Positions 1 to 19,296 of a DNA stretch of 20,832 nt are shown here, in pieces. A program made the position numbers and the translations under genes. Location: contig JBEWZL010000135.1 of the NCBI GenBank assembly GCA_045837725.1, positions 62,001-82,832 on the forward strand. Direction: 5' to 3'. Source of the DNA: Vermamoeba vermiformis (taxonomy: Eukaryota). The notes under the pieces were generated by a model. It had not been told where the DNA came from and did no database searches. It saw only the letters and a list, made by a program, of their open reading frames with translations. Every line of letters starts with the position of its first letter. The first letter of the stretch is position 1.

Positions 1-834
1 AAGGTAGGAACATTTTCGCGTTTTGACATTTATTACCATATTTGGCTAATTATACCATATTTGTAGTTCTATCATGTACACGGTTAATCCGTTGAACTCG
101 ATGATTAAGAAGGCACAAGACGATGAGTCGCAATTTCCTTTTATGGAAAGTTCATCGGAGCCGTTTTTCTTGACACTCGCTGCGGCTAGTGCGATTGCCA
201 AAAATGGAAAAGATATGACTGAACTGATTGGCCAGCACAAGGGCGATAAATTGTACGTTTGATCGCTTCAGTTATTATTTAGTACTAATGTCTTTATGCA
301 CTAGGGGTTATTATTCGGTCACTATTATTGACGTCATTTCGCTGCGTGAAAAATTCGATGCGACTGCAAAGAATGTGGTGTTGTTGCTTGAAAAGGCAAA
401 GGATCAGATCGAAACGTAAGAAATATTTGCAAACAATCATGGAGATATTTTTTTAATTGTAATCACATTGTATTTAACAGCGAAGATATTACGCAAAAGT
501 TAATCGCGAACAAATTGTACGTGAATGACGGCGTGGCAGTGAATGACAATGTGCGACAGCAATCAATGCTCGAAAAGAATTCACTGAACGGCTTGTTCGA
601 TCACGAGAAATTTGCTACAGGCGCTAAAGTACGTATTATTCGTTGATTTAATGATCATCACAAATGAGTGCTCATTATTTATTTGTTATATAGAATGCGT
701 ATACTTTATCTGGCCTAGCGTTAGCGACGAAATCTAGTTTCAATCAAGAGCTGATCCAATCGGCGGTCGAAGGAAAGAACATGTTTGGTGTAGAGTTAGA
801 TTATATTGAAGAGGGCTTGACTACACGACTGTAA
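1..834 (+). CDS. Hypothetical protein, 5'-partial, at least 4 introns; ends ...GVELDYIEEGLTTRL*
   Basis: Hand-spliced GT-AG introns (~4-66, 254-304, 416-480, 630-693) join exons into one frame: ...SIMYTVNPLNSM...KGDKL|GYYSVTIIDV...KDQIET|EDITQKL...ATGAK|NAYTLSG...TTRL, TAA at 832-834. No family recognised. Confidence 0.7.
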
Positions 835-1057: not shown

Positions 1058-2578
1058 TTAATTATCGTGCAAATACCAATCAAACATCTCGTGCACCAAC
1101 GCATTAAAATTAAATGCACCTGCGACAATGCAAAGGTGCCAGATCTGATGACTCGTTGGCTAAAAATACATTAATAAACCATTGTGATATGCATACAGTT
1201 ATTTACTTACAAATATACTTAATCTTCCGTCAGGGAAGGCTCGTTCAGGAAATCTCGTTATAAAAAAAGCTAATCCGACGCCATAGCATAGGTATGTCAA
1301 CGCGTAGCGCTTGAGGACGAACCAAGTCTACATATAATCGATTACTAATTAATATTATTGATTATAATAGTAATCGGAGTTTTGCAATGAATCAATTTGC
1401 GCTTGGTGAATCTGGATCGACTATTTTTTGGCCAAATAGCTTACTTGATTCATGATGGATATCTTCGCGACTAATATTATTCCGAATATAAACATAAATA
1501 ATAGCATTTTCATCCTATAACAACGTAAATTAGAACTGTCTTAAACTTGAATTTTTGTACTGGATCTTGCCTTCTAGCCTCGTCTTTGATTAAATCGCAA
1601 GTCAATAAGAAAGATATGACTAAGTACGATAAATATACGAGTACTATTAAATACAAGCATGCTTGCGTCGGATGTTTGTGGAATCCGTAAAAAGTGACGT
1701 AGAGCTCTGAAAAAATGAACGCTGAAAGAATTCCAACGTGATCGATTCTTTCCCTAATAAGGAAATAAATTAATTTAATAAAATTGATGTGATAATTCGG
1801 GTTTGTTTTAGCTACTTGCCAGCAATGACATGCGGATTCGGAATGACAAGAAAATAAATGATACAAGGCACTTGAGCCCAAGCACAATATTACTCCAGTA
1901 TAGTACATTAATAATAATGCCCTAGCGAAAGGAAATATTAGCGATTAAATTGATTGGCTCCAGATCCAAAAATATGATTAGTTGGCGTTACCCATGTATT
2001 GGTCCGTATTTGTGTTCAAATTCGTTGCCGCGTATTAAATCGACAGATAAATATATATAATACATCAGAGGTATTAAATGAGTCCAAATATTGCCTGCCA
2101 GAATTAGATCGAATTCTAGATCGTTTTTGGATCCGATTATATTCTTACCAGTTTGATTATGAATAGAAAATAACGTCTTTATGCATTCCAAATATGAGTT
2201 TTTCTCGTTTCTATAGCCATACGTGATCCATTCAAGGTGCATCCAGCGAGGAACTTTCGAGATGGGCAAAGCTTCGGACATTATTGTTTTTGAGCTATAA
2301 AAATTGCATTAATATTTTTAAAAATACGTGAATACTGTCATATTATCATTTTCGTTGTTATTAATAATTGCTAATGTAAAAAAATATCTTTACCGGCCAG
2401 ATCTTGGTCCCATTTCTTGGCTCTTATCGTAATGACCGTTCATAATATGATTTCCATTACAATTTTCATTGTGTGAATGGCCATTTTGGTCTGAACTGAG
2501 GCTGAACTCAGATTTGGTGCCGTTAAGCAACGAGTCTGCACTAGATCTCCTTGCCTTTCTTCGTAGTGATATTGCCAT
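1058..2578 (-). CDS. PAQR / adiponectin-receptor (haemolysin III family) 7-TM protein
   Basis: Spliced product contains the PAQR motifs 'GYR...FSIHNQTGNIWTH', 'SSALYHLFSCHSE...ERIDHVGI' and 'TRFPERAFPDG...TSHQIWH' (Zn-binding His residues). ATG at 2578 (MAISLRRK), TAA at 1058. 7 introns, two of them GC-AG. Confidence 0.92.
1515..1570 (-). other. GC-AG intron in PAQR gene
   Basis: Donor AG|GCAAGA and acceptor TTATAG|G join 'KDEARR' to the hydrophobic 'MKMLLFMFIFGIILV'. The nearby GTACAA donor gives a non-hydrophobic frame. Confidence 0.7.
1754..1819 (-). other. GC-AG intron in PAQR gene (66 nt, in frame, stop-free)
   Basis: Donor TG|GCAAGT and acceptor ATTAG|G give 'CHSESACHCWERIDHVGI', which has the same spacing as AdipoR 'CHSEKVSRTFSKLDYSGI'. 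Confidence 0.8.
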
Positions 2579-5391: not shown

Positions 5392-6256
5392 ATGAAAGTA
5401 GCACTTCTTGTATTCATTATCACTTTGCTCGCTGCTGGCTGCTACGCTGGTCGTTATCTGGAGATCTACTCCGATAGCAACTGTGTAGATCTTGTTGCTG
5501 TTGATTGGGTAAGAATGCTTGACCATAAAAGATATATATCTAACCGTTATGCAGTGTTCTGAGTGCGGTACTGGAACCGATGTCGTTTGCAGTGCTACTG
5601 GCGGTGGATCTTCCAACTACTACTCGTTATCTTACGACTACGCTTTTGCTTATGCAGATGATATTCCCTCCGACTTTGCCCGCATTGCGTATAAAAAAGC
5701 TGGTGATTGCGCTACCATGGATGCCACAAACGTAGACTTTACTGCGGGTAAGCATCCGAAACTGTAAATTCGGTTCACAAACGAAAATTGTGTTCTAAAT
5801 TTGGTTCTGTTAGTCAACGCCTCGCAACTGGGAGAGTGTCTTGGCTACTACGAAGGAAGCCAAAGTGCAATCCGAATTAGCGGATGCGACGGAACGAACC
5901 CGATCACATTCCAATACTACGATATCAGTTCTACTTGCAGTTATAACTCACCTCCTGGTACCTTTTCGAGCACTTGTGGTGAGATTGGCTCAACGGGCGT
6001 TTTTGGTCTCGGAGCTTGTCCAAACGAGCAACTTTTCGGAATTCCAGCTACACCGACTAGCCCTCCTGTTGACGCACCCGTCAGCGCTCCTATTGATAGC
6101 ACTCCAAGCGCCAGTCCTACTGCTAGCAATTCTCCATCTGGTTCAAACAGTCCTTCGTCAAACAGCCCGACTAAATCGACCACTCCCGTCAAATCTTCTG
6201 ACGCCGCAAAAATAACTATGGAAATACTCGCTGTTATTGCTTTGTTCCTTTTTTAA
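5392..6256 (+). CDS. Secreted Cys-rich, Ser/Thr/Pro-stalk, probably GPI-anchored cell-surface protein
   Basis: Signal peptide MKVALLVFIITLLAAGCYA, a Cys-rich ectodomain and a PTSPPVDAPVSAPIDSTPSASPTASNSPSG stalk. C-terminus KSSDAAKITMEILAVIALFLF* has small residues followed by a hydrophobic tail. 2 GT-AG introns. Confidence 0.85.
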
Positions 6257-10836: not shown

Positions 10837-12766
10837 TTAAATGAACTTGACCTGGATGCTGACACCAACTCCGGGCAAAGAAGGATCAGTAACGTCCAAA
10901 TAGGCACCGTCCTATACACTAACAAATATTAACACTACTAAAACAAAATTAACGCCATTAAACAGGTACTTACGGGGAACAATTCCTTGCACTGCTTCTC
11001 CAAGTTGGGTCTGGTGGCCTTTTCTAAGGGAGCAGGCTGTTGCATGTACAATGAAATAGTCTTGGCACCCTCGGGAGTGTAACGAATGCTAGGTTTCTTC
11101 AACATACTAATGATAAAAGACGTTAGTCCGGTCACATCTAGATCGAGATCACGAGTGGATCAGCGTAGCTCCATTGAACTTACAATTTGCTGTTGTTGCC
11201 CAACTCTTCCTTCAAGTCGTTGAGAGTGGCCTCGCCGCTGAATTCCAATGACAAAGGCTCACCACCGCAGACAGGGCAGTGCTTCTTCTTTTCAAAGTTG
11301 AAGGTGTACGTGTAGACGGATTGTTGGCCGTTGTACATCATGTAGTTGTTCAAGTACTTGCTGGACTTGGTGGCAATCTTGAAGGCCTCGTTGGCGCAAG
11401 CAGCAGCAATGATGGCGTTAGTGGCGGCAATAGCGGGAATGATGCGCTTGACGACACCTTGGGTCAATCTGTAGGTCACGCCGTTGATGTTGAATTGCTT
11501 GGCACGTTCAGCAGCCTTTTCGAAGATCCAGGTCATGTGTTCCGGACTGTCCTTGTCGAGCTTGACGTCGGGGAAGGCGTCAGGGAACATGACAGTCATG
11601 GCGTACTCAATGCAGTGCTCGGGTTGACGAGGAGTGTGCGCCAAAGTGCACATAGGGAAGTTCATCGGGTCCTTAGGGAACATCTCCAACGAGCACTCGA
11701 AGCACGAGGTGACGCGCGGCAAGATAACTCTTGCTTGGCCCTTGAAACCTTCAGTACCACCGTCGACCAAAGGAATGACAGTGTCGGGATCGGGCTTGCC
11801 GTCGTCATCGTATTGGACCAAGTTGGCCAATGTAGTGTTGATCCAGCGACGAGCTTCAACGGAGTCCAAACCAGCAATGATCAAAGTGAATTGGCAGTAA
11901 AAGTCATCGTCCTTGTCTTGGATCTTGCAGAAATGACTGGTGAGGTTAGTTAAGGAAAAATAATAATGAATGTATGGTAATAATTTAAGTTCTTATGTTA
12001 GGGTTGAATAAGGATACGGAACGACGTTAGCGCCAGGAACACGCTTGTTAATGAAAGCAGCGGCACATTCAGCCTTAGCCTTGCCAACATCACCAGCTCT
12101 ATACGAACAACATTAATATTATGCACATTTGCACGCAAAAGTGCGAGAATAAAATACAAAATAATATTACTAAGAACGACTGAGTGATTGAAATAAATGT
12201 GGAATCTGATCTGCATGGAGCCGCTATTTGTGGCGGTTATGCTCATAATATAACTATATTTATGTAATAAATACCTGAATAAAAATTGTCTGTTCAAGTT
12301 GGAAATGTCGATCGTATCCATATCAATAACATCAATATTGCGGAAACCAACGAGAACCAAGTCCTTAAGAAGCTCGCAGCCCAAACCACCAGCACCAATA
12401 ACCAAAATTCTAGAATCTTCCAACAAAAATTGCTTGTTCTGTCGAGAAAGAAGTCAGATTGACCAGCAAATAATTACATTGTTTAATTTTATTACAAAAT
12501 TATCAAAACTCGGTATTTATGGTCCATAATTACGCTAATTTTTTGAAGTAATATATTTTCCATTTTAACACGTCGTAGAGTATCTCTAGCGAGTTATGGT
12601 CTTTAAAATTAAATTTGTGGGTATTACTTAAATTTAATAGATTCTCATCAATACTTACAGCTCCATTATCAGGAGTATCAGGTTCGAAGCCAACAGCCGC
12701 GGAAGGTCCGCTTCGGCTCAACAATTTGTCGATGTCGGCCCAACGTTCAGCAATATCAAGAGACAT
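10837..12766 (-). CDS. UBA3: NEDD8-activating enzyme E1 catalytic subunit
   Basis: [66 protein letters not shown], catalytic [41 protein letters not shown] and a C-terminal E2-binding domain ending ...VSIQVKFI*. 5 coding introns plus a probable 5'UTR intron (~12769-12831). Confidence 0.96.
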
Positions 12767-13109
12767 GACTAATACGCTATTATATTAATATCCACACGTG
12801 TAATTGAGCCTAATAAGTTGATTATAGGTACCTTAGTGTTCTTTGGTGCTTAGTAAATGGTTGAAATAATTTGGTCTATTTTTCCTCCGTGCTTGCACAG
12901 GAACACACGTGCAATCGTTGAGACCATCACTCATTATTTAGAACATTCCATAATATTTCGTTGAGCTCACTACCACCGGTACGTTTCCTGGAAATTATCG
13001 ATCTGCTCTATTTATTTGATCGTTGGATGAAAATCTTTTTTCATTTGTTTTAATTTGCCCAAGCACCATACGGCATCAGTTAATATTTGTTGCGTATAAT
13101 ATTGGTATA
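12767..13109. promoter_or_regulatory. Probable bidirectional promoter region between UBA3 and the AlkD-like gene
   Basis: The two genes are divergent with starts ~340 nt apart. Two copies of CACACGTG (E-box core CACGTG) at 12793-12800 and 12904-12911. Confidence 0.4.
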
Positions 13110-14291
13110 ATGAGTGCCTCGACTGTTACTTCCGTTGTGACGTCCATCCGCAACACGCTGCAACAAAATGCCAACAAAGCAGACAGTCAAATGATACAAA
13201 AATATTTTAAAAATGTCCTCGAATTTCATGGCATTCGTGCCCCGAAGCTCAACGCCCTGTTCAAAGAGCTGTACTCGAGCCAGATTAGCGAGCTGGATAC
13301 AGACGAGCAACTGAAGGTGGCTTACAGCTTGTTTGACTCTAAACTAGGCGAAGAGAAGTCTATAGGATGCAGGATCCTAACTAAGAACACGAAGAAGCTC
13401 GGCGTTCAACATCTGCCTCGTCTGGAGGAGTTAATCGACAATCACATTTACGACTGGTAAGTTGAAGTAGCCACACCTGGTGAAGATATCTAGTTATTAA
13501 TGTTGCTAAAAGGGGCACCGCAGACAAGTTTAGTGGCCAAGTCATGCACTTCCTGATCACGAAGGACAAAAAAGTTCCATCGTTGATTGCCAAATGGTAC
13601 GATTATTGAAACCTTGTAGGCACGCTCAATATAATATCTTTACTAAGTCTGGAATAGGAAAGACGCGGAGAACGTTTGGCGAAAGAGAGTCAGTTGCGTG
13701 TCGTTTGTCAAACTCGCGCGACACGGCAAGTATAACGATATTATATACGACATCTGTGAAACTACTGTCAAGTGCAACGAGCGCTTCGTCCAGTTGGGGG
13801 CAGGGTAAGTGGACTACAATAGTTTTTATTCCTATACGATTGCTTATAATGTGCCCTAGATGGGTTCTTCGAGAGCTCTCACTAGCGGATCTCGGTGCCG
13901 TTGTTAGCGCCGTAGCAGCGATCAAAGGATTCTTGCCCGTCGTCAAAGAAGTCCTCAACATTATTCAAAAAGGCGTCCAAACAGCGCAGCAAGTTTTAAA
14001 TACTGTTGATGAAAAATTAAAAGGCCTTCCGCTCGCCGATAATCAGAAGAAAGCTTTACGAGAGTAAGAATTAAGTTCTAATGATATTAACAATGTTAAT
14101 TGTCACGCAGACTCGCAGCTTGCGCTCCCTCGAAGCTCATTGATGGCACAAATATACCAAAGTCTACATTACAAGAGGTCGGAAAGAGATTCGGCGAAGC
14201 GTTCGAGGTGGATGTGACCAACTTCGCCGATCAATTTACGAACGCATTGAATGAAGTCACTACTATTGATCCTAGAATCCACACTAATTAA
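13110..14291 (+). CDS. AlkD-family (HEAT-like repeat) DNA alkylation-repair glycosylase with an unrelated C-terminal extension
   Basis: Exons 13110-13456, 13513-13596, 13658-13804, 13860-14063 and 14111-14291. AlkD signatures: KYFKN..FHGIRAP, YDWGTAD (W..D), ENVWRKR, ERFVQLGSGWVLRELS. After 'LADLGAVVS' the sequence is no longer AlkD-like. Confidence 0.82.
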
Positions 14292-14387: not shown

Positions 14388-17300
14388 TTACTTCTTAATT
14401 ACAAGTATACTATTCTCGCCGTCATATCCGAGAATCAGCTGGTTGTTGGAGTTTGATTCGGCAATGTTCATCGGATCTTCGTTCAGAATCCACAAACAAA
14501 TGTCAGTACTAAGAATCTGCGCCACGTTATACATATGCAAATGCAATCCTCCTCTGTGGACGAAGAATTCTTCGTCTAACGTGATATAATCACCGACTTT
14601 GCCGTTTTGCAAGAACGTCGTAAGGAGATCCAAAGACGTCAATTTCTCTTTTGCTAGCAACTGAAATTCCTCTAGTATTAAATATTTGAATAAGATATTA
14701 GCAAAAAAGTCCTCTGTGCTTACGGATTGAAGTCGGTAAAACCAGATCCGTATTGTCAAAGCTTTTCGCGTGTGCTTTCAACTGCAACCAGATATCGTTA
14801 TCAATGTATGTCTTAGTATTACCTTGCTCAAACAGCAATCTCTTGTCAGTAATTATTCTCGGAATTTTTGCGCCTGCGGCAATAATAATACTGGTGAAGT
14901 GCGATCGTAGCAAAGAGACGGTTTCAAGCTTCGGAAACTTGGTCAAATCGAGTGTCGTCGTTGTTCGGCGCAGCGAGCCAAAGTAAGCACCATCGTTGAG
15001 TGAAATTGAGCGCAAGTTAACGAAGTTGGTGTGTGCGATTGTTTCATCGAGGTGTTCGATTGAATAGGAGCCACCGCTCAGATCCAAGTGGGTCAATTTG
15101 GACAATAACGAGAGCTTATTGAGAGAGTACTTTTTGTGCTCATTGACGATCATCTTCACTCGCTTCAGATCCGGTAATTTGCCTTGTACAAAAAAAATTA
15201 GTGCTTTTGACTAGAAAACTTTCAAACTAATTTTTTTTCAGATTGCGCTGAGATTTCTGGCATTTCAGAACTTAATCGGTTAAACGAACTTACTTTTCAT
15301 TTCTCGATAGATTTTCTCCTCGAGGTTGCTTTTCTCCGTCATATTTTTCGTCAACACTAATCCGATAGCTTTGTGGTGCGTTGGTTCTACAAAAACATCA
15401 TTAAATTATTAACGCTATAAATTTTCAAAGTACCAGCAATTAAGCCCCATCCAAGTCTATTCTTCAAAGCTTGTTCGGTTAATTTGTCTTCGACCACTAA
15501 GATTATGTGCGGGAGTTCTTGCGGCTGATTAAAATTGATCTTTTTCTGCACAAAGTACAAGATGGCATTCCAAATCTTAGGGTACAATGGTCTGAAGTCC
15601 GTGGATATCGATGACGTGTTCGAAATTGACGCAGATCTAGAGCAACGAGGTTATTAGTTGCTGCATATAATGGCCACAAAAAACCACAAATTTGATGACT
15701 TACGTTGCCGATGTATGAGAATTCGAGGAATTAACCGTTGATTCTGAGACTTTGTTGAAGGCTTCAAGTACCGCAGCAGAAAGTTCTTTTGTAATGCTCG
15801 TCTCGATTTGCTTTCGTTTTTGTTCTGAGACCTGAAGTTCGTTCAATCGCGTGCTTCTGGAGCTGAATTCTTTTTGAAGCTGAGTTGAGATCGATGACTC
15901 GACAGCCCGACTAATCTGTGTCATTTCTTCTTTCAATTTGTTGCCTTCGTAATTCGAATTTTCAGTCGTCGTAAAAGTTTGGTGTACGCGACGGCTGTTT
16001 GACTCCGTGATCGAGTTACTTTGTTCTTCTTGAATGGTATGCGATAAATTCATCGTTTTTGCATAATTACTCGATTTCCTAGAAAAAATTGTTAGCAAGT
16101 GCAGCATGATGCAGCTGTCTTTACGTACGAGGTTGCAGCACGATCTGACTGATTATTTTCTCTTCTTAACTCATTGCGAATGGTGAAAGCAGTCGTTTGA
16201 TCTGCTTTGTTTATCGATTCATTCGTGGAAGCCGAACTGATTTTAGAGGACGTACTAATGCTGATCTAAATAGCAAAGCGTTAGTTTTGTACAAAATAGC
16301 ATGAATTTGCGAATTTGAAAAAATTACCGTAGAGCTGCTACCGATGAGTTCATCAACAAATATGACAATAGCTGTGCGACCACCTGAGTGTTTGCACTCT
16401 TCAAATCGCTGCTTCATGTAGCCTTCGAACTCGTTTTCATCTTTCAAATCGAACGACTCGCGATTGACCACTTGAATCAGTGAAAAATTGTAGTACGTGA
16501 AGAGCGGAAGAAGCAAGTTGTAGACGATACTAGGGCTGTGCCTGCTTTCATCAAACAGGCCGCAAATGTCTGACAGTAACGGCGCGAAATGAAATCCACG
16601 GCACAATTCCATTTCTAACTGCGGAGTGCCCGTCAAATTCACGATGAACCTGCCAGTCAACGAGCCAGTAGACTTTGGGTAGTGTTCTTGAATAAACAGT
16701 TTCCGTCCAACTAATCCATCGTAATCGGAAAACGCTGATCGGTCTTGATTGGACTAAACAGTTATAATTAGAGATGCAATGAATTGATGTGAAGGAGTGC
16801 TGCACTTACGAGACTGAGGTAGTTCCATTGCAAATTTGGCTTGTCTCTTTTTCTCAAGTACTTTTCAATCGCTTTCACGAACAATTTTGCAGTCAAAGTC
16901 GCATTTGCGTCTCGTCTTCGCTTCTTCAGAATTTTGTTGGCCACGTGATTTTTGATTGTTGCGATTTGAGCCACCGTGAAATTGGTCAATTTCGATTCTA
17001 AATACCCCTAGAATATCGGAAGAATTAGCTTTACTATTGCGTATTCGATATTAATTTTCTTACTTTGAAAACAGGGTTTGCGACTAGCTTATCGAACGTG
17101 GCTGTCCAATCAGGAAATTTCGTGCTCTTTTCCCACCCAGCGCGAATCATCTTAATAGTGCTACTAACGATCATAGGCCCAATGAAGATATGATAGCCAA
17201 CTCTGCCATCGCGAATAACAGCAGCGTCGAGCTTTTCTTTGAAATTAGTCGCAAGAATGACGAACAAGTTGTGGTACTCTTTGGAGCCAACAATAGCGAT

Positions 17301-18314
17301 AAACTGGTTCAAAAAGTCGCTTTTGTAACCTTGTTTCTAAGAATTATCGGTTAATCTTGTATTCATGAACCACTATGAAAAGATCAGTTCTTACATCCGC
17401 AGATCGATCACCTCCGATGGAGTCAAATTCATCCACAAACATGCAATAGGACTCATTAGGGTTTTGTTTGCATTTATCTGCTTCTTCTCGAATTCTCTTT
17501 TCAGTCTCGCCGACTTCCTTGGTGACGAATCTAGCTGCACTTCCTCGACCGGTTATATTTGCTCCGCGAAAGAACATCATTATGAAATCTGCAAGATTCG
17601 TCTTGCCAGTACCTTAGTAACAGTTTAGTCTAGCTAAGCGACAAGTTATAGACCACATCCGTAGTCTTACCTGGCGGACCGTACAGCAAGACTCCTGCCG
17701 GCCTTCCAAACCATTCTTCGCTCGCTAACGGATACAAAATGTCGTTTCTCAATTTCTTAAGCAGTAAATCATCGTAAAATCGGCCCCTAAAAGAATAAAG
17801 AATTAAAATTTTTCTGGATGTTGCAAGGTCAACTTACTGCGCAGCCTCAGCTTGCTTCCACTCATTAATACGATCATCAATATTAGAAATATCCAGAGGT
17901 ACGAATGGTTTGTTCGACGAGCCAGGCTGCTGAGAACCACTGACAGTCACAAGACTTTTGGCCTCGCGATCTAACTCCATTGTAAGTATTTTCATTAATT
18001 AATTCTAGGAACTTACTTTGTATTGCCGTTATAAATCTGCACTCGAGATAAAATCCGCCATTTTCTTGTTTGACATCCGTAAGCTTGATCCTTCGTCTTG
18101 CAGCAGTGATGGTAATTCCAAAATAACCTACTGCTGTAGGATCGTGACTCAGTACTTGTAGAAGGGATTCAGCTGCATTAATAAAACCACTGCCAACGAC
18201 GCAATCGCGGATGTCGTTGTAGGTTGCTTCATCCGTCCACAGAAGTTTGACTGAATGCTTTACGCTGGGCGCAGTATCGAAACTAAAATGAATGATTAAT
18301 GTACGACCTTCCAT
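14388..18314 (-). CDS. Large AAA+ ATPase: N-domain, active AAA (D1), degenerate AAA (D2) with Ser/Thr-rich/coiled-coil insert, LRR-like C-terminus
   Basis: 12 hand-spliced GT-AG introns give one ORF from ATG 18314 to TAA 14388. Walker A GVLLYGPPGTGKT, pore loop TKEVGETEKRIRE, Walker B CMFVDEFDSI, sensor-1/SRH VILATNFKEKLDAAVIRDGRV, second Walker-B-like AIVIFVDELIG. LRR-like segments LTHLDLSG, LRSISLND, LDLTKFPKLETVSL. AATAAA lies just downstream. Confidence 0.8.
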
Positions 18315-18584
18315 AGGTGACGGTATTAACAAATAAAGTGAAGGATTCGCAAAAACCGAATTTTGTAAACAGATCTAAATAATTCACACTCAATTCTTTC
18401 ACTTTTTGAAAGAATAACTTGTTAACGCAAGCAATAGGACCGAAAATCATACGACTTTTAAGGAATATGTAATCTTACCTGATCAGCCGATCCAAGTTGA
18501 AGATCTCACGACCAAAGAATTGAAAAGGTATAAATAACGGTTTGTTCGACCATTTTCAATTTTCTGCGCAACAATCACAACACA

Positions 18585-19296
18585 ATGCAAGGCACTCCTA
18601 TGTATAAGAAAACTTTCAGCAAACAAGACGGCGATAATAGCTACTTCGGCTCTGTTACCTTCACGGAACCAGCGTCAGAGGAGCAAGACGGCCAATTCTT
18701 TTGCGAAGCGATCAACTCGTCATCTCTTCGTTACTACACGTTTCAGACGAACGTGACGCTCTTGCAAAGCTTGCAGTACCAACAAATCTTCAATATACTT
18801 GGACACAACGCCAACAGGTACACGTTGGTCGGGCACCAACTTCGCATTGACTCGCAGACTACTCCTGGCGTGCAAGTGATTGGTGCATCAGCAATTTGAC
18901 AACACTGACGACCGCTTGACAACACTTGCAAAGCTGACACAAAAGCAATTAGACTACGTGAACAGCCAGCTGGTGCAACTCCATACCTTGCAGCAGGAAG
19001 TTACTACGCTAAAGGGACACGTCGTCAATCCAAATCGAATCATCTTGAGAGTTACGAAGAGATATTGCCGGGATTACAAGTTCTGCTTCACTGAAATAAT
19101 TGCCTTGACGAGAGAACCCAGCGGGTGGGTTTGGAAGAGCCAAAGTGCCACTGACGATAAATGGATCACTGACGTCAAGTCGCCGGATGGCAGGACAGTG
19201 AATATGAATCTGTGGGGCCAAAGAATCAGCTACACGACGCCTGCAGCTGAGTGGCGCCAAATTTCGAGCCACGATGTTTTGATTGAAACTGTATAA
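18585..19296 (+). CDS. Intronless hypothetical protein (N-domain, coiled coil, Trp/beta-rich C-domain) split by a +1 frameshift
   Basis: ORFs 18585-18899 and 18880-19296 overlap by 20 nt in the +1 frame. Both look protein-like. Heptad region LTTLAKLTQKQLDYVNSQLVQLHTLQQEVTTLKG. AATAAA near 19326. Confidence 0.6.

Follow-up and report, generated by a model that had tools for sequence, protein, structure and literature searches.

A 20,832-nt stretch of the Vermamoeba vermiformis genome (assembly GCA_045837725.1, contig JBEWZL010000135.1, positions 62,001 to 82,832 of the forward strand), referred to below as the window and numbered from its first letter, was found to carry on its minus strand (14388..18314) a 13-exon gene for a protein with a classical AAA module (D1), a degenerate second module (D2) interrupted by a long polar insert, and a C-terminal region that likely holds a short arc of leucine-rich repeat (LRR)-like units. 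The gene is real and transcribed as a single unit, and its product falls in a mostly chytrid subfamily of tandem classical AAA ATPases that has gone unrecognised and is mislabelled in public records. The explanation that we favour, with confidence somewhat above even, is a lineage-restricted type II (tandem) classical AAA ATPase in which D1 would be the active module, D2 a nucleotide-dead scaffold and the two ends sites for binding partners.

Gene model and transcript evidence

The window, which is eukaryotic DNA, has a G+C content of about 40%. The coding region (18314..14388, minus strand) comprises 13 exons with 1070 codons plus a stop and is open throughout after splicing; its limits are exactly the first ATG and the stop codon of this frame, which is where the initial annotation had placed them. 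The exons are as follows.

18314-18017, 17970-17838, 17786-17671, 17612-17395, 17336-17064, 17007-16810 and 16753-16328, minus strand: exons 1 to 7
16265-16129, 16078-15704, 15636-15434, 15386-15294, 15182-14724 and 14671-14388, minus strand: exons 8 to 13

All 12 introns have GT..AG ends and lengths of 46 to 111 nt, intron 11, ahead of exon 12, being the longest at 111 nt. A CTAAC-like branch site is visible by eye in many of them, and the donor of intron 8 is GTACGT, which keeps the reading frame open.

Transcript evidence was sought in 19 public runs, none of which contained at least half of the sampled words of the stretch, and four runs were compared. Five contigs from X1 and 15 from X16 showed 90-99% similarity to the window and leave out sequence precisely at the modelled introns; they therefore come from spliced transcripts of strains or close relatives. 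From the raw RNA runs X17 and X18, 0 reads aligned, a result that carries no weight on expression either way. Joints in the X1 and X16 contigs matched nine of the 12 introns (introns 4 to 12), with an imperfect joint at intron 12, where X1 has two unmatched letters and the lower side in X16 is 11 nt off. Intron 3 is backed by an X16 contig whose loose end of 20 letters at 17614 reads as the end of exon 3, and the basis for introns 1 and 2 is frame continuity and GT..AG ends. A spliced X1 contig of 1147 nt spans exons 12, 11, 10, 9 and 8, with the same joints in X16; a second X1 contig joins exon 13 to exon 12, X16 joins exon 8 to exon 7, and a further X1 contig of 1005 nt spans exons 7, 6, 5 and 4. 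The AAA exons and the LRR-like exons are thus chained together in spliced contigs and form one gene, and the splicing check upholds the assignment of both to a single gene in the initial annotation.

Codon changes relative to the window, scored among 40 of 77 differences, were mostly synonymous (22 synonymous versus 10 non-synonymous codons in X1, 10 versus 5 in X16), which indicates purifying selection in this frame. One X1 contig skips 72 nt of exon 5 (17195-17266; 24 codons, non-canonical ends), over the sensor-1/arginine-finger motif. Possible replacement letters were not discernible there, and the stretch is whole in P0001, a 99% identical open reading frame (ORF) from another assembly (collected proteins are referred to by P numbers throughout).

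The classical AAA module

The following features were placed in and directly after D1.

17064..17770, minus strand: D1, classical AAA, aa ~150-346, from PF00004, motifs and sequence matches in the PDB
17680..17599, minus strand: Walker A GPPGTGKT, split by intron 3
within 17523..17506, minus strand: pore loop 1, K-E-V-G
within 17442..17422, minus strand: Walker B MFVDEFD
17255..17202, minus strand: sensor 1 and second region of homology, LATN...LDAAVIRDGR, with two arginines
16810..17007, minus strand: helical region after D1, aa 347-412, with NFT.AQ and PNL.(W/F)N motifs, from the family alignment and BLAST to P0008, P0091 and P0004

Two of the 13 exon translations matched PF00004 above its 21.2-bit cut-off, exon 4 with 29.0 bits (E 1.6e-6) and exon 5 with 22.1 bits (E 2.2e-4), on consecutive parts of the profile (9-73 and 80-130, respectively). 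Aligned with VAT and AFG2, D1 has the full classical AAA motif set (Walker A, Walker B, sensor-1 Asn and arginine fingers), and the strings that had been read as an intact AAA module at the outset (GPPGTGKT, FVDEFD and ATN...LDAAVIRDGR) are all present. The top solved structures in an exon-level sequence search were VAT, Cdc48/p97 D2, AFG2 D2 and BCS1 (E 2e-7 to 1e-4), and a family profile searched against solved structures returned VAT, Cdc48, AFG2, p97, NSF, NVL and Rix7. Judged by sequence, D1 is closest to the Cdc48/p97/VAT/AFG2 type. Its intact motifs, the trans-acting arginines included, point to an oligomeric ATPase.

The aromatic-hydrophobic-Gly pore loop 1 of threading unfoldases is absent from the window protein, whose aligned residues read K-E-V-G. 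P0008 and P0019 (both PLVG), P0014 (SKVG), P0011 (GKVG), P0091 (GIQG) and P0021 (GLVG) also lack the aromatic, and it is kept in P0025 (SFVG), P0030 (PYSG), P0041 and P0033 (KYVG) and P0089 (KYFG). A pore loop 1 without the aromatic argues against ordinary substrate threading and thus against a standard unfoldase.

The degenerate second module and its insert

D2 is made up of two halves on either side of the insert.

16337..16684, minus strand: D2 first half, aa ~436-551, from sequence, hhalign and the P0008 model
16657..16619, minus strand: D2 pseudo Walker A, TGRFIVNLTGTPQ, with no GK[ST]
16369..16340, minus strand: D2 Walker-B-like strand, IVIFVDELIG
15600..16336, minus strand: polar low-complexity D2 insert, aa 552-737, 186 aa (S 23%, T 13%, E 10%, N 9%)
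15364..15599, minus strand: D2 second half, aa 738-800, with helix, strand PHIILVVED (15512..15486), helix and GWG (15452..15444), from BLAST to P0097, P0005, P0014 and P0008

D2 has no P-loop, which agrees with the degenerate second module described at first, and its likeness to AAA comes from a profile comparison and from a model of a relative. Family D2 was aligned with family D1 by hhalign (P 0.012, probability 3.7%), with helix 1, strand 2, helix 2 and the Walker B strand in register; hidden Markov models of family D2 matched only their own training members among 251 collected proteins and give no independent support. Since the window D2 is split over exons 7 and 10, P0008 was folded in its place, with a 23-row alignment that included seven window exons. 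The model has a mean predicted local distance difference test score (pLDDT) of 57, with 70-91 in D1 (130-375), up to 94 in the D2 elements (429-540 and 784-830) and below 50 at both ends and in the insert. In this model the counterpart of the D2 first half (pLDDT 80-94) aligns to D2 of p97, AFG2 and NSF, and the second half is represented by helix 784-800, strand 811-816 and helix 819-828 (pLDDT 76-91). When the Foldseek top 1000 chains were realigned, the model matched D1 plus D2 of Drg1/AFG2, p97, NVL, NSF and Yta7 at Z 19-20 over 334-372 residues, spanning 122..832; D1-only matches aligned 235-254 residues.

The insert lies in the P0008 model after the Walker-B strand and before the next helix, a site that we take to be pore loop 2 of classical AAA modules. 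The second half of the window insert is helical or coiled-coil in appearance, and the inserts of relatives, at the same place, are longer and S/T/N/G/Q-rich. In P0005, P0019, P0021, P0030 and P0041 the insert runs to 200-400 loosely repeating residues rich in Ser, Thr, Gly and Asn, and P0097 is nearly without one.

Family membership, phylogeny and comparison with known systems

An HMMER search with exon 5 returned 128 proteins at E<=1e-3. By BLAST of the spliced model, P0008 aligned to aa 134-857 (E 1.7e-65), and P0014, P0011, P0091, P0005, P0030 and P0097 likewise aligned past D1, through the post-D1 region and the second module. About a dozen relatives have D1, D2 and the insert in common, in a fixed order of D1, the helical NFT.AQ/PNL.(W/F)N region, a TGRFI-type strand without a P-loop, the Walker-B-like strand, the insert and a helix-strand-helix unit ending in WG. 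The ends are not shared: the first 145 and last 247 residues of the window protein have no significant BLAST similarity to any collected relative, and the ends are therefore regarded as variable.

Named members come from the chytrids Rhizoclosmatium, Phlyctochytrium, Rhizophlyctis and Obelidium and from one amoebozoan transcriptome, Echinamoeba. Their public names conflict (FTSH 4, SEC18, peroxisomal assembly protein, hypothetical), and the eight members scanned with Pfam show a single AAA domain apiece. A FastTree phylogeny of 252 AAA domains, made up of the exon 5 matches and 14 Cdc48-type and other proteins, and without labelled NSF, PEX, NVL or ATAD2 references, placed the family D1 in its own 14-row clade (Shimodaira-Hasegawa-like support 99). 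The window D1 is nearest to P0008 (49% identity), within a 6-row group (support 94) that includes four named chytrid-fungus sequences. A word-indexed search of longer proteins with exon 7 gave no match, and one with A1, a nine-sequence family alignment, gave beside the query P0008 only Cdc48-type double-AAA proteins, both modules of which score against D1, so that it added no member to the family. The literature search, as far as the accessible parts of the papers go, found none on this family and none on a classical AAA protein with leucine-rich repeats. Outside the family, four exon 5 matches (P0002, P0003, P0006 and P0007; 1236-1398 aa) carry four or five complete tandem PF00004 modules.

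The window protein resembles Cdc48/p97/VAT, AFG2/Drg1 and NVL/Rix7 in the full motif set and best scores of D1 and in the superposition of P0008 D1-D2, but differs from them in a D2 without a P-loop, the 186-aa insert, the missing pore aromatic, the LRR-like C-terminus and the separate D1 clade. Pfam CDC48_N and CDC48_2 matched none of the 13 window exons or eight family members, and with no N-domain, a D2 without a P-loop and a D1 outside the Cdc48-type rows of the tree the protein does not belong to the Cdc48/p97 orthologous group. D1 plus D2 of P0008 also matches NSF (6mdp_C, Z 18.9) and Yta7 (7uqj_F, Z 18.9); NSF and ATAD2/Yta7, which we take to be tandem AAA proteins with one ring as the motor, differ in their ends (no NSF N-domain or bromodomain was found by Pfam in the window exons or scanned members), and the D2 insert is specific to the family.

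The C-terminal region

The C-terminal features lie in exons 12 and 13.

14848..15180, minus strand: LRR-like region of ~4 units, aa ~825-935, exon 12, from weak Pfam matches, motif count, Atlas, PDB phmmer and an AlphaFold2 model
15168..15151, 15096..15070, 15015..14989 and 14928..14902, minus strand: LRR motif cores
14391..14847, minus strand: C-terminal 135 aa, end of exon 12 and exon 13, with one more LxxLxL match at 14642..14616

Exon 13 has no Pfam match. The motif LxxLxLxx(N/C/S/T/G/D)x-hydrophobic was counted against 2000 shuffles: aa 781-1070 hold 4 matches versus 1.22 +/- 1.07 expected, a count of at least 4 being reached in 3% of shuffles, and four of the five matches in the whole protein fall in this region. 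They lie at aa 853, 880 and 909, with spacings of 27 and 29 that fall within the 20-30 residues of tandem repeats, and at aa 987. The ten best named Atlas clusters for exon 12 are all LRR families (scores 0.92-0.96), and the sole PDB phmmer match (E 0.088) is an alignment with LRR-type motifs. In a single-sequence AlphaFold2 model of exon 12, short predicted strands coincide with the motif cores. When this low-confidence model was compared with 48,161 representative chains, both matches at Z>=8 were LRIM1 LRR entries (Z 9.3 and 9.2), the best superposing at 2.7 Å over 99 residues; most of the 50 matches listed are LRR domains by title, as are most of the proteins listed by Foldseek. The model thus resembles short LRR modules such as those of LRIM1, SDS22, ANP32/LANP and F-box LRR proteins (TIR1, FBXL17, Rad7) over ~100 residues (2.5-3 Å, Z 6.4-9.3), but differs from them in sequence (9-27% identity among the matches listed), in having no Pfam LRR match above cut-off and in its pLDDT of 50.

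A short LRR-like arc of ~4 units at aa ~825-935 is likely. It belongs to the window protein, and perhaps to P0005, rather than to the whole family: of the relatives' C-termini only that of P0005 is enriched in the motif (7 versus 2.04 expected), P0030 has 1 versus 0.81 expected, and since the motif is unenriched in six of eight relatives the LRR is not a defining family trait as it is in nucleotide-binding LRR receptors (NLRs). An FPxLxxLxLxG-like motif seen by eye in the C-termini of several relatives was unsupported by the formal count, in which six of the eight score 0. Among 5.8 billion clusters the only relative of exon 12 was P0248, a 100% identical copy, which leaves no conservation to lean on.

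The N-terminal region and 5' end

Two features were placed at the 5' end of the gene.

17783..18314, minus strand: N-terminal region, aa 1-145, exons 1, 2 and the start of 3
18283..18478, minus strand: optional 5' intron with canonical GT..AG ends, from one X1 contig with joint 18281->18479

The N-terminal region has no Pfam match, no BLAST similarity to the relatives and, for exon 1, no usable Atlas match. The X1 splice ties an upstream non-coding exon (18479 to at least 18700) to 18282 and removes the ATG at 18314. In the joining frame the upstream exon has a TGA at 18558..18556 and then no in-frame ATG, and therefore the 5'-spliced isoform cannot encode the full protein from the window sequence. 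An X16 contig covers 18085 to 18312 without a splice, consistent with a messenger that retains ATG 18314.

The upstream exon is antisense to the start of a plus-strand ORF (18534..18899, ATG 18585), and X1 insertions of 3, 3 and 1 nt (at 18538, 18582 and 18584) all lie upstream of that ATG. The region 18534-19296 holds a pair of plus-strand ORFs of 121 and 138 aa that overlap in different frames, the latter beginning with a coiled-coil-like segment; neither has a Pfam family above cut-off, and the pair could represent a single gene interrupted by a frameshift or tiny intron near 18880-18899.

Genomic neighbourhood

The block around the gene, whose members had initially been called unnameable, contains recognisable genes: a ThiF/UBA3-like E1 (11180..12453), a DNA alkylation repair protein (13020..13460) and a HlyIII-family protein (1510..1944). 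The ThiF-family E1 is UBA3/NEDD8-activating-like, has two exons on the minus strand with PF00899 matches of E 1e-21 and 1.6e-19, and is the most G+C-rich part of the window (0.49). A plus-strand ORF of 162 aa at 5768-6256 has a Cys-containing N-terminal half, a Ser/Pro/Thr-rich tail, a hydrophobic end and no Pfam match; its product looks secreted or anchored at the cell surface.

Interpretation and alternative explanations

On the explanation that we favour, D1 would bind and hydrolyse ATP, its motifs being intact with both arginines, and the protein probably assembles into a ring, by analogy with its structural relatives. D2 may act as a nucleotide-dead scaffold domain like the scaffold rings of other tandem AAA proteins, its loop after the Walker-B strand having apparently grown into a long, polar and probably disordered insert. 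The N-terminal region and the C-terminal LRR-like arc would most likely bind partners or clients. Whatever its cellular role may be, the product would in that case use ATP to remodel or switch a bound protein rather than act as a canonical threading unfoldase.

Several results weigh against this explanation or parts of it. The Pfam LRR matches lie below cut-off (LRR_14 14.9 bits versus 40, E 0.011; LRR_4 12.3 versus 27, E 0.21), no Pfam LRR reached E<=0.01 in any of the eight family members scanned, the motif is wholly missing from six of eight relatives' C-termini, and pLDDT stays under 50 over the C-terminus of the P0008 model. The pLDDT of 50 for exon 12 was reached in only one of five models, the other four scoring 31-35; the Z of 9.3 is little above the background of 7-8 quoted by the tool; Foldseek gave nothing at E<=0.001 for the model (best E 0.12); and the lines of LRR evidence are not independent, because all of them read one short motif. 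For D2, sequence support for an AAA-like fold is weak, and the structural case is drawn from a predicted model of the relative P0008 and not from the window protein; the D1 plus D2 superpositions of that model have a root-mean-square deviation of 9-12 Å, so the folds of the domains agree but the way they are oriented to each other does not. Where the protein truly begins is unsettled, because one X1 isoform splices out the start codon.

That an AAA gene and an adjacent LRR gene were merged in the model is extremely improbable. Only the long intron 11 looked odd, nothing else spoke for it after testing, and the 1147-nt contig from exon 12 to exon 8, its X16 counterparts and the continuously open frame contradict it. 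Somewhat less readily dismissed, though still unlikely, is that the family and its tandem AAA core are real and the repeats are chance matches in some other fold. The shuffle result, the Pfam scores, the low pLDDT and the want of a non-identical relative of exon 12 all allow this, but four kinds of readout (Atlas, PDB sequence, Foldseek and the 48,161-chain search) indicate LRR and nothing else, and predicted strands fall on the motif cores. The C-terminal repeats of the initial annotation accordingly stand as four motif matches in a short region that falls far below the Pfam threshold, and the proposed solenoid as a fold matched by LRIM1 in a model of low confidence. We also give a low probability to a highly diverged ortholog of a housekeeping type II AAA protein (ATAD2/Yta7-like, or an NSF/AFG2/NVL derivative) in which the LRR would be only apparent. 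The best structural and sequence matches are indeed AFG2/Drg1, p97, NVL, NSF and Yta7, relatives are publicly annotated as housekeeping AAA proteins, and Yta7/ATAD2 presumably also pairs an active first with a degenerate second module. Those annotations, however, contradict one another, Pfam found no bromodomain, CDC48_N, NSF or peroxin N-domain in the 13 window exons and eight members, and the supported D1 clade stands apart, albeit in a tree without labelled NSF, PEX, ATAD2 or NVL. Orthology to a housekeeping AAA protein, which the initial annotation had named as the outcome that would overturn it, thus finds no support, and the D2-plus-insert architecture is specific to the family.

Similarly improbable is that a classical AAA protein has been turned into an NLR-like sensor for immunity or conflict, in which the LRR would sense non-self, the ring would switch and the N-terminus would signal or execute. 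In its favour are variable ends that flank a conserved nucleoside triphosphatase (NTPase) core, an LRR-like C-terminus and a scarcity of canonical NLRs in chytrids: to the extent of its accessible text, one survey detected no canonical NLRs among chytrids, nor any with LRRs among fungi (PMC4986451), and a later one, likewise seen in part, reports chytrid species with as few as one NLR (PMC12258605). Sparse chytrid NLRs, as given in these texts, therefore leave room for another type of receptor but do not support one. Like NLRs and other signal transduction ATPases with numerous domains (STAND), the window protein is tripartite, its NTPase core standing between a variable N-terminus and a C-terminus that resembles repeats; unlike them, it has a PF00004 NTPase with a second region of homology, ~4 LRR units in place of a long sensor array and no known effector domain, and neither NACHT nor NB-ARC matched the 13 exon translations at E<=1. 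PADLOC gave generic AAA similarity only, with IetA and TRIP13 matching the AAA module at E 1.8e-10 at best; no N-terminal effector domain was recognisable in Pfam or Atlas, the window contains no paralogue of the gene and its neighbours are housekeeping genes, no diversifying selection is visible in the small sample of mostly synonymous strain differences, and most relatives lack LRR motif enrichment. The NLR-like layout proposed initially therefore survives as architecture, a classical AAA, a degenerate AAA and an LRR-like end in one transcript, and goes no further than analogy; the sensor or unfoldase for defence against intracellular bacteria or giant viruses that was proposed with it found no support, the PADLOC similarity being generic and the pore loop lacking its aromatic.

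Implications

A broader form of the receptor idea, to which we attach only a slight chance, is that the family is the chytrids' own class of intracellular receptor, an AAA ring with swappable N- and C-terminal modules, among them the LRR arc of the window protein, that would sense non-self or damaged proteins and with the D2 insert as a regulated plug or tether. If true, it would amount to an independent invention of NTPase-plus-repeat receptor logic on a non-STAND ATPase; an immune function would be important if true, and at present has no direct support.

Few protein machines have been studied as closely as classical AAA ATPases, and the catalogue of their families is generally regarded as largely complete. 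The family described here pairs a D1 that is probably active with a D2 that appears dead and is divided by a polar insert, whose length ranges from a hundred to several hundred residues; its ends are interchangeable, and Pfam covers D1 only. It offers annotators a tangible example of proteins being systematically mislabelled in early-diverging fungi. AAA specialists may ask, given the missing pore aromatic and the D2 insert after Walker B, what job such a ring would perform if it does not thread its substrates.

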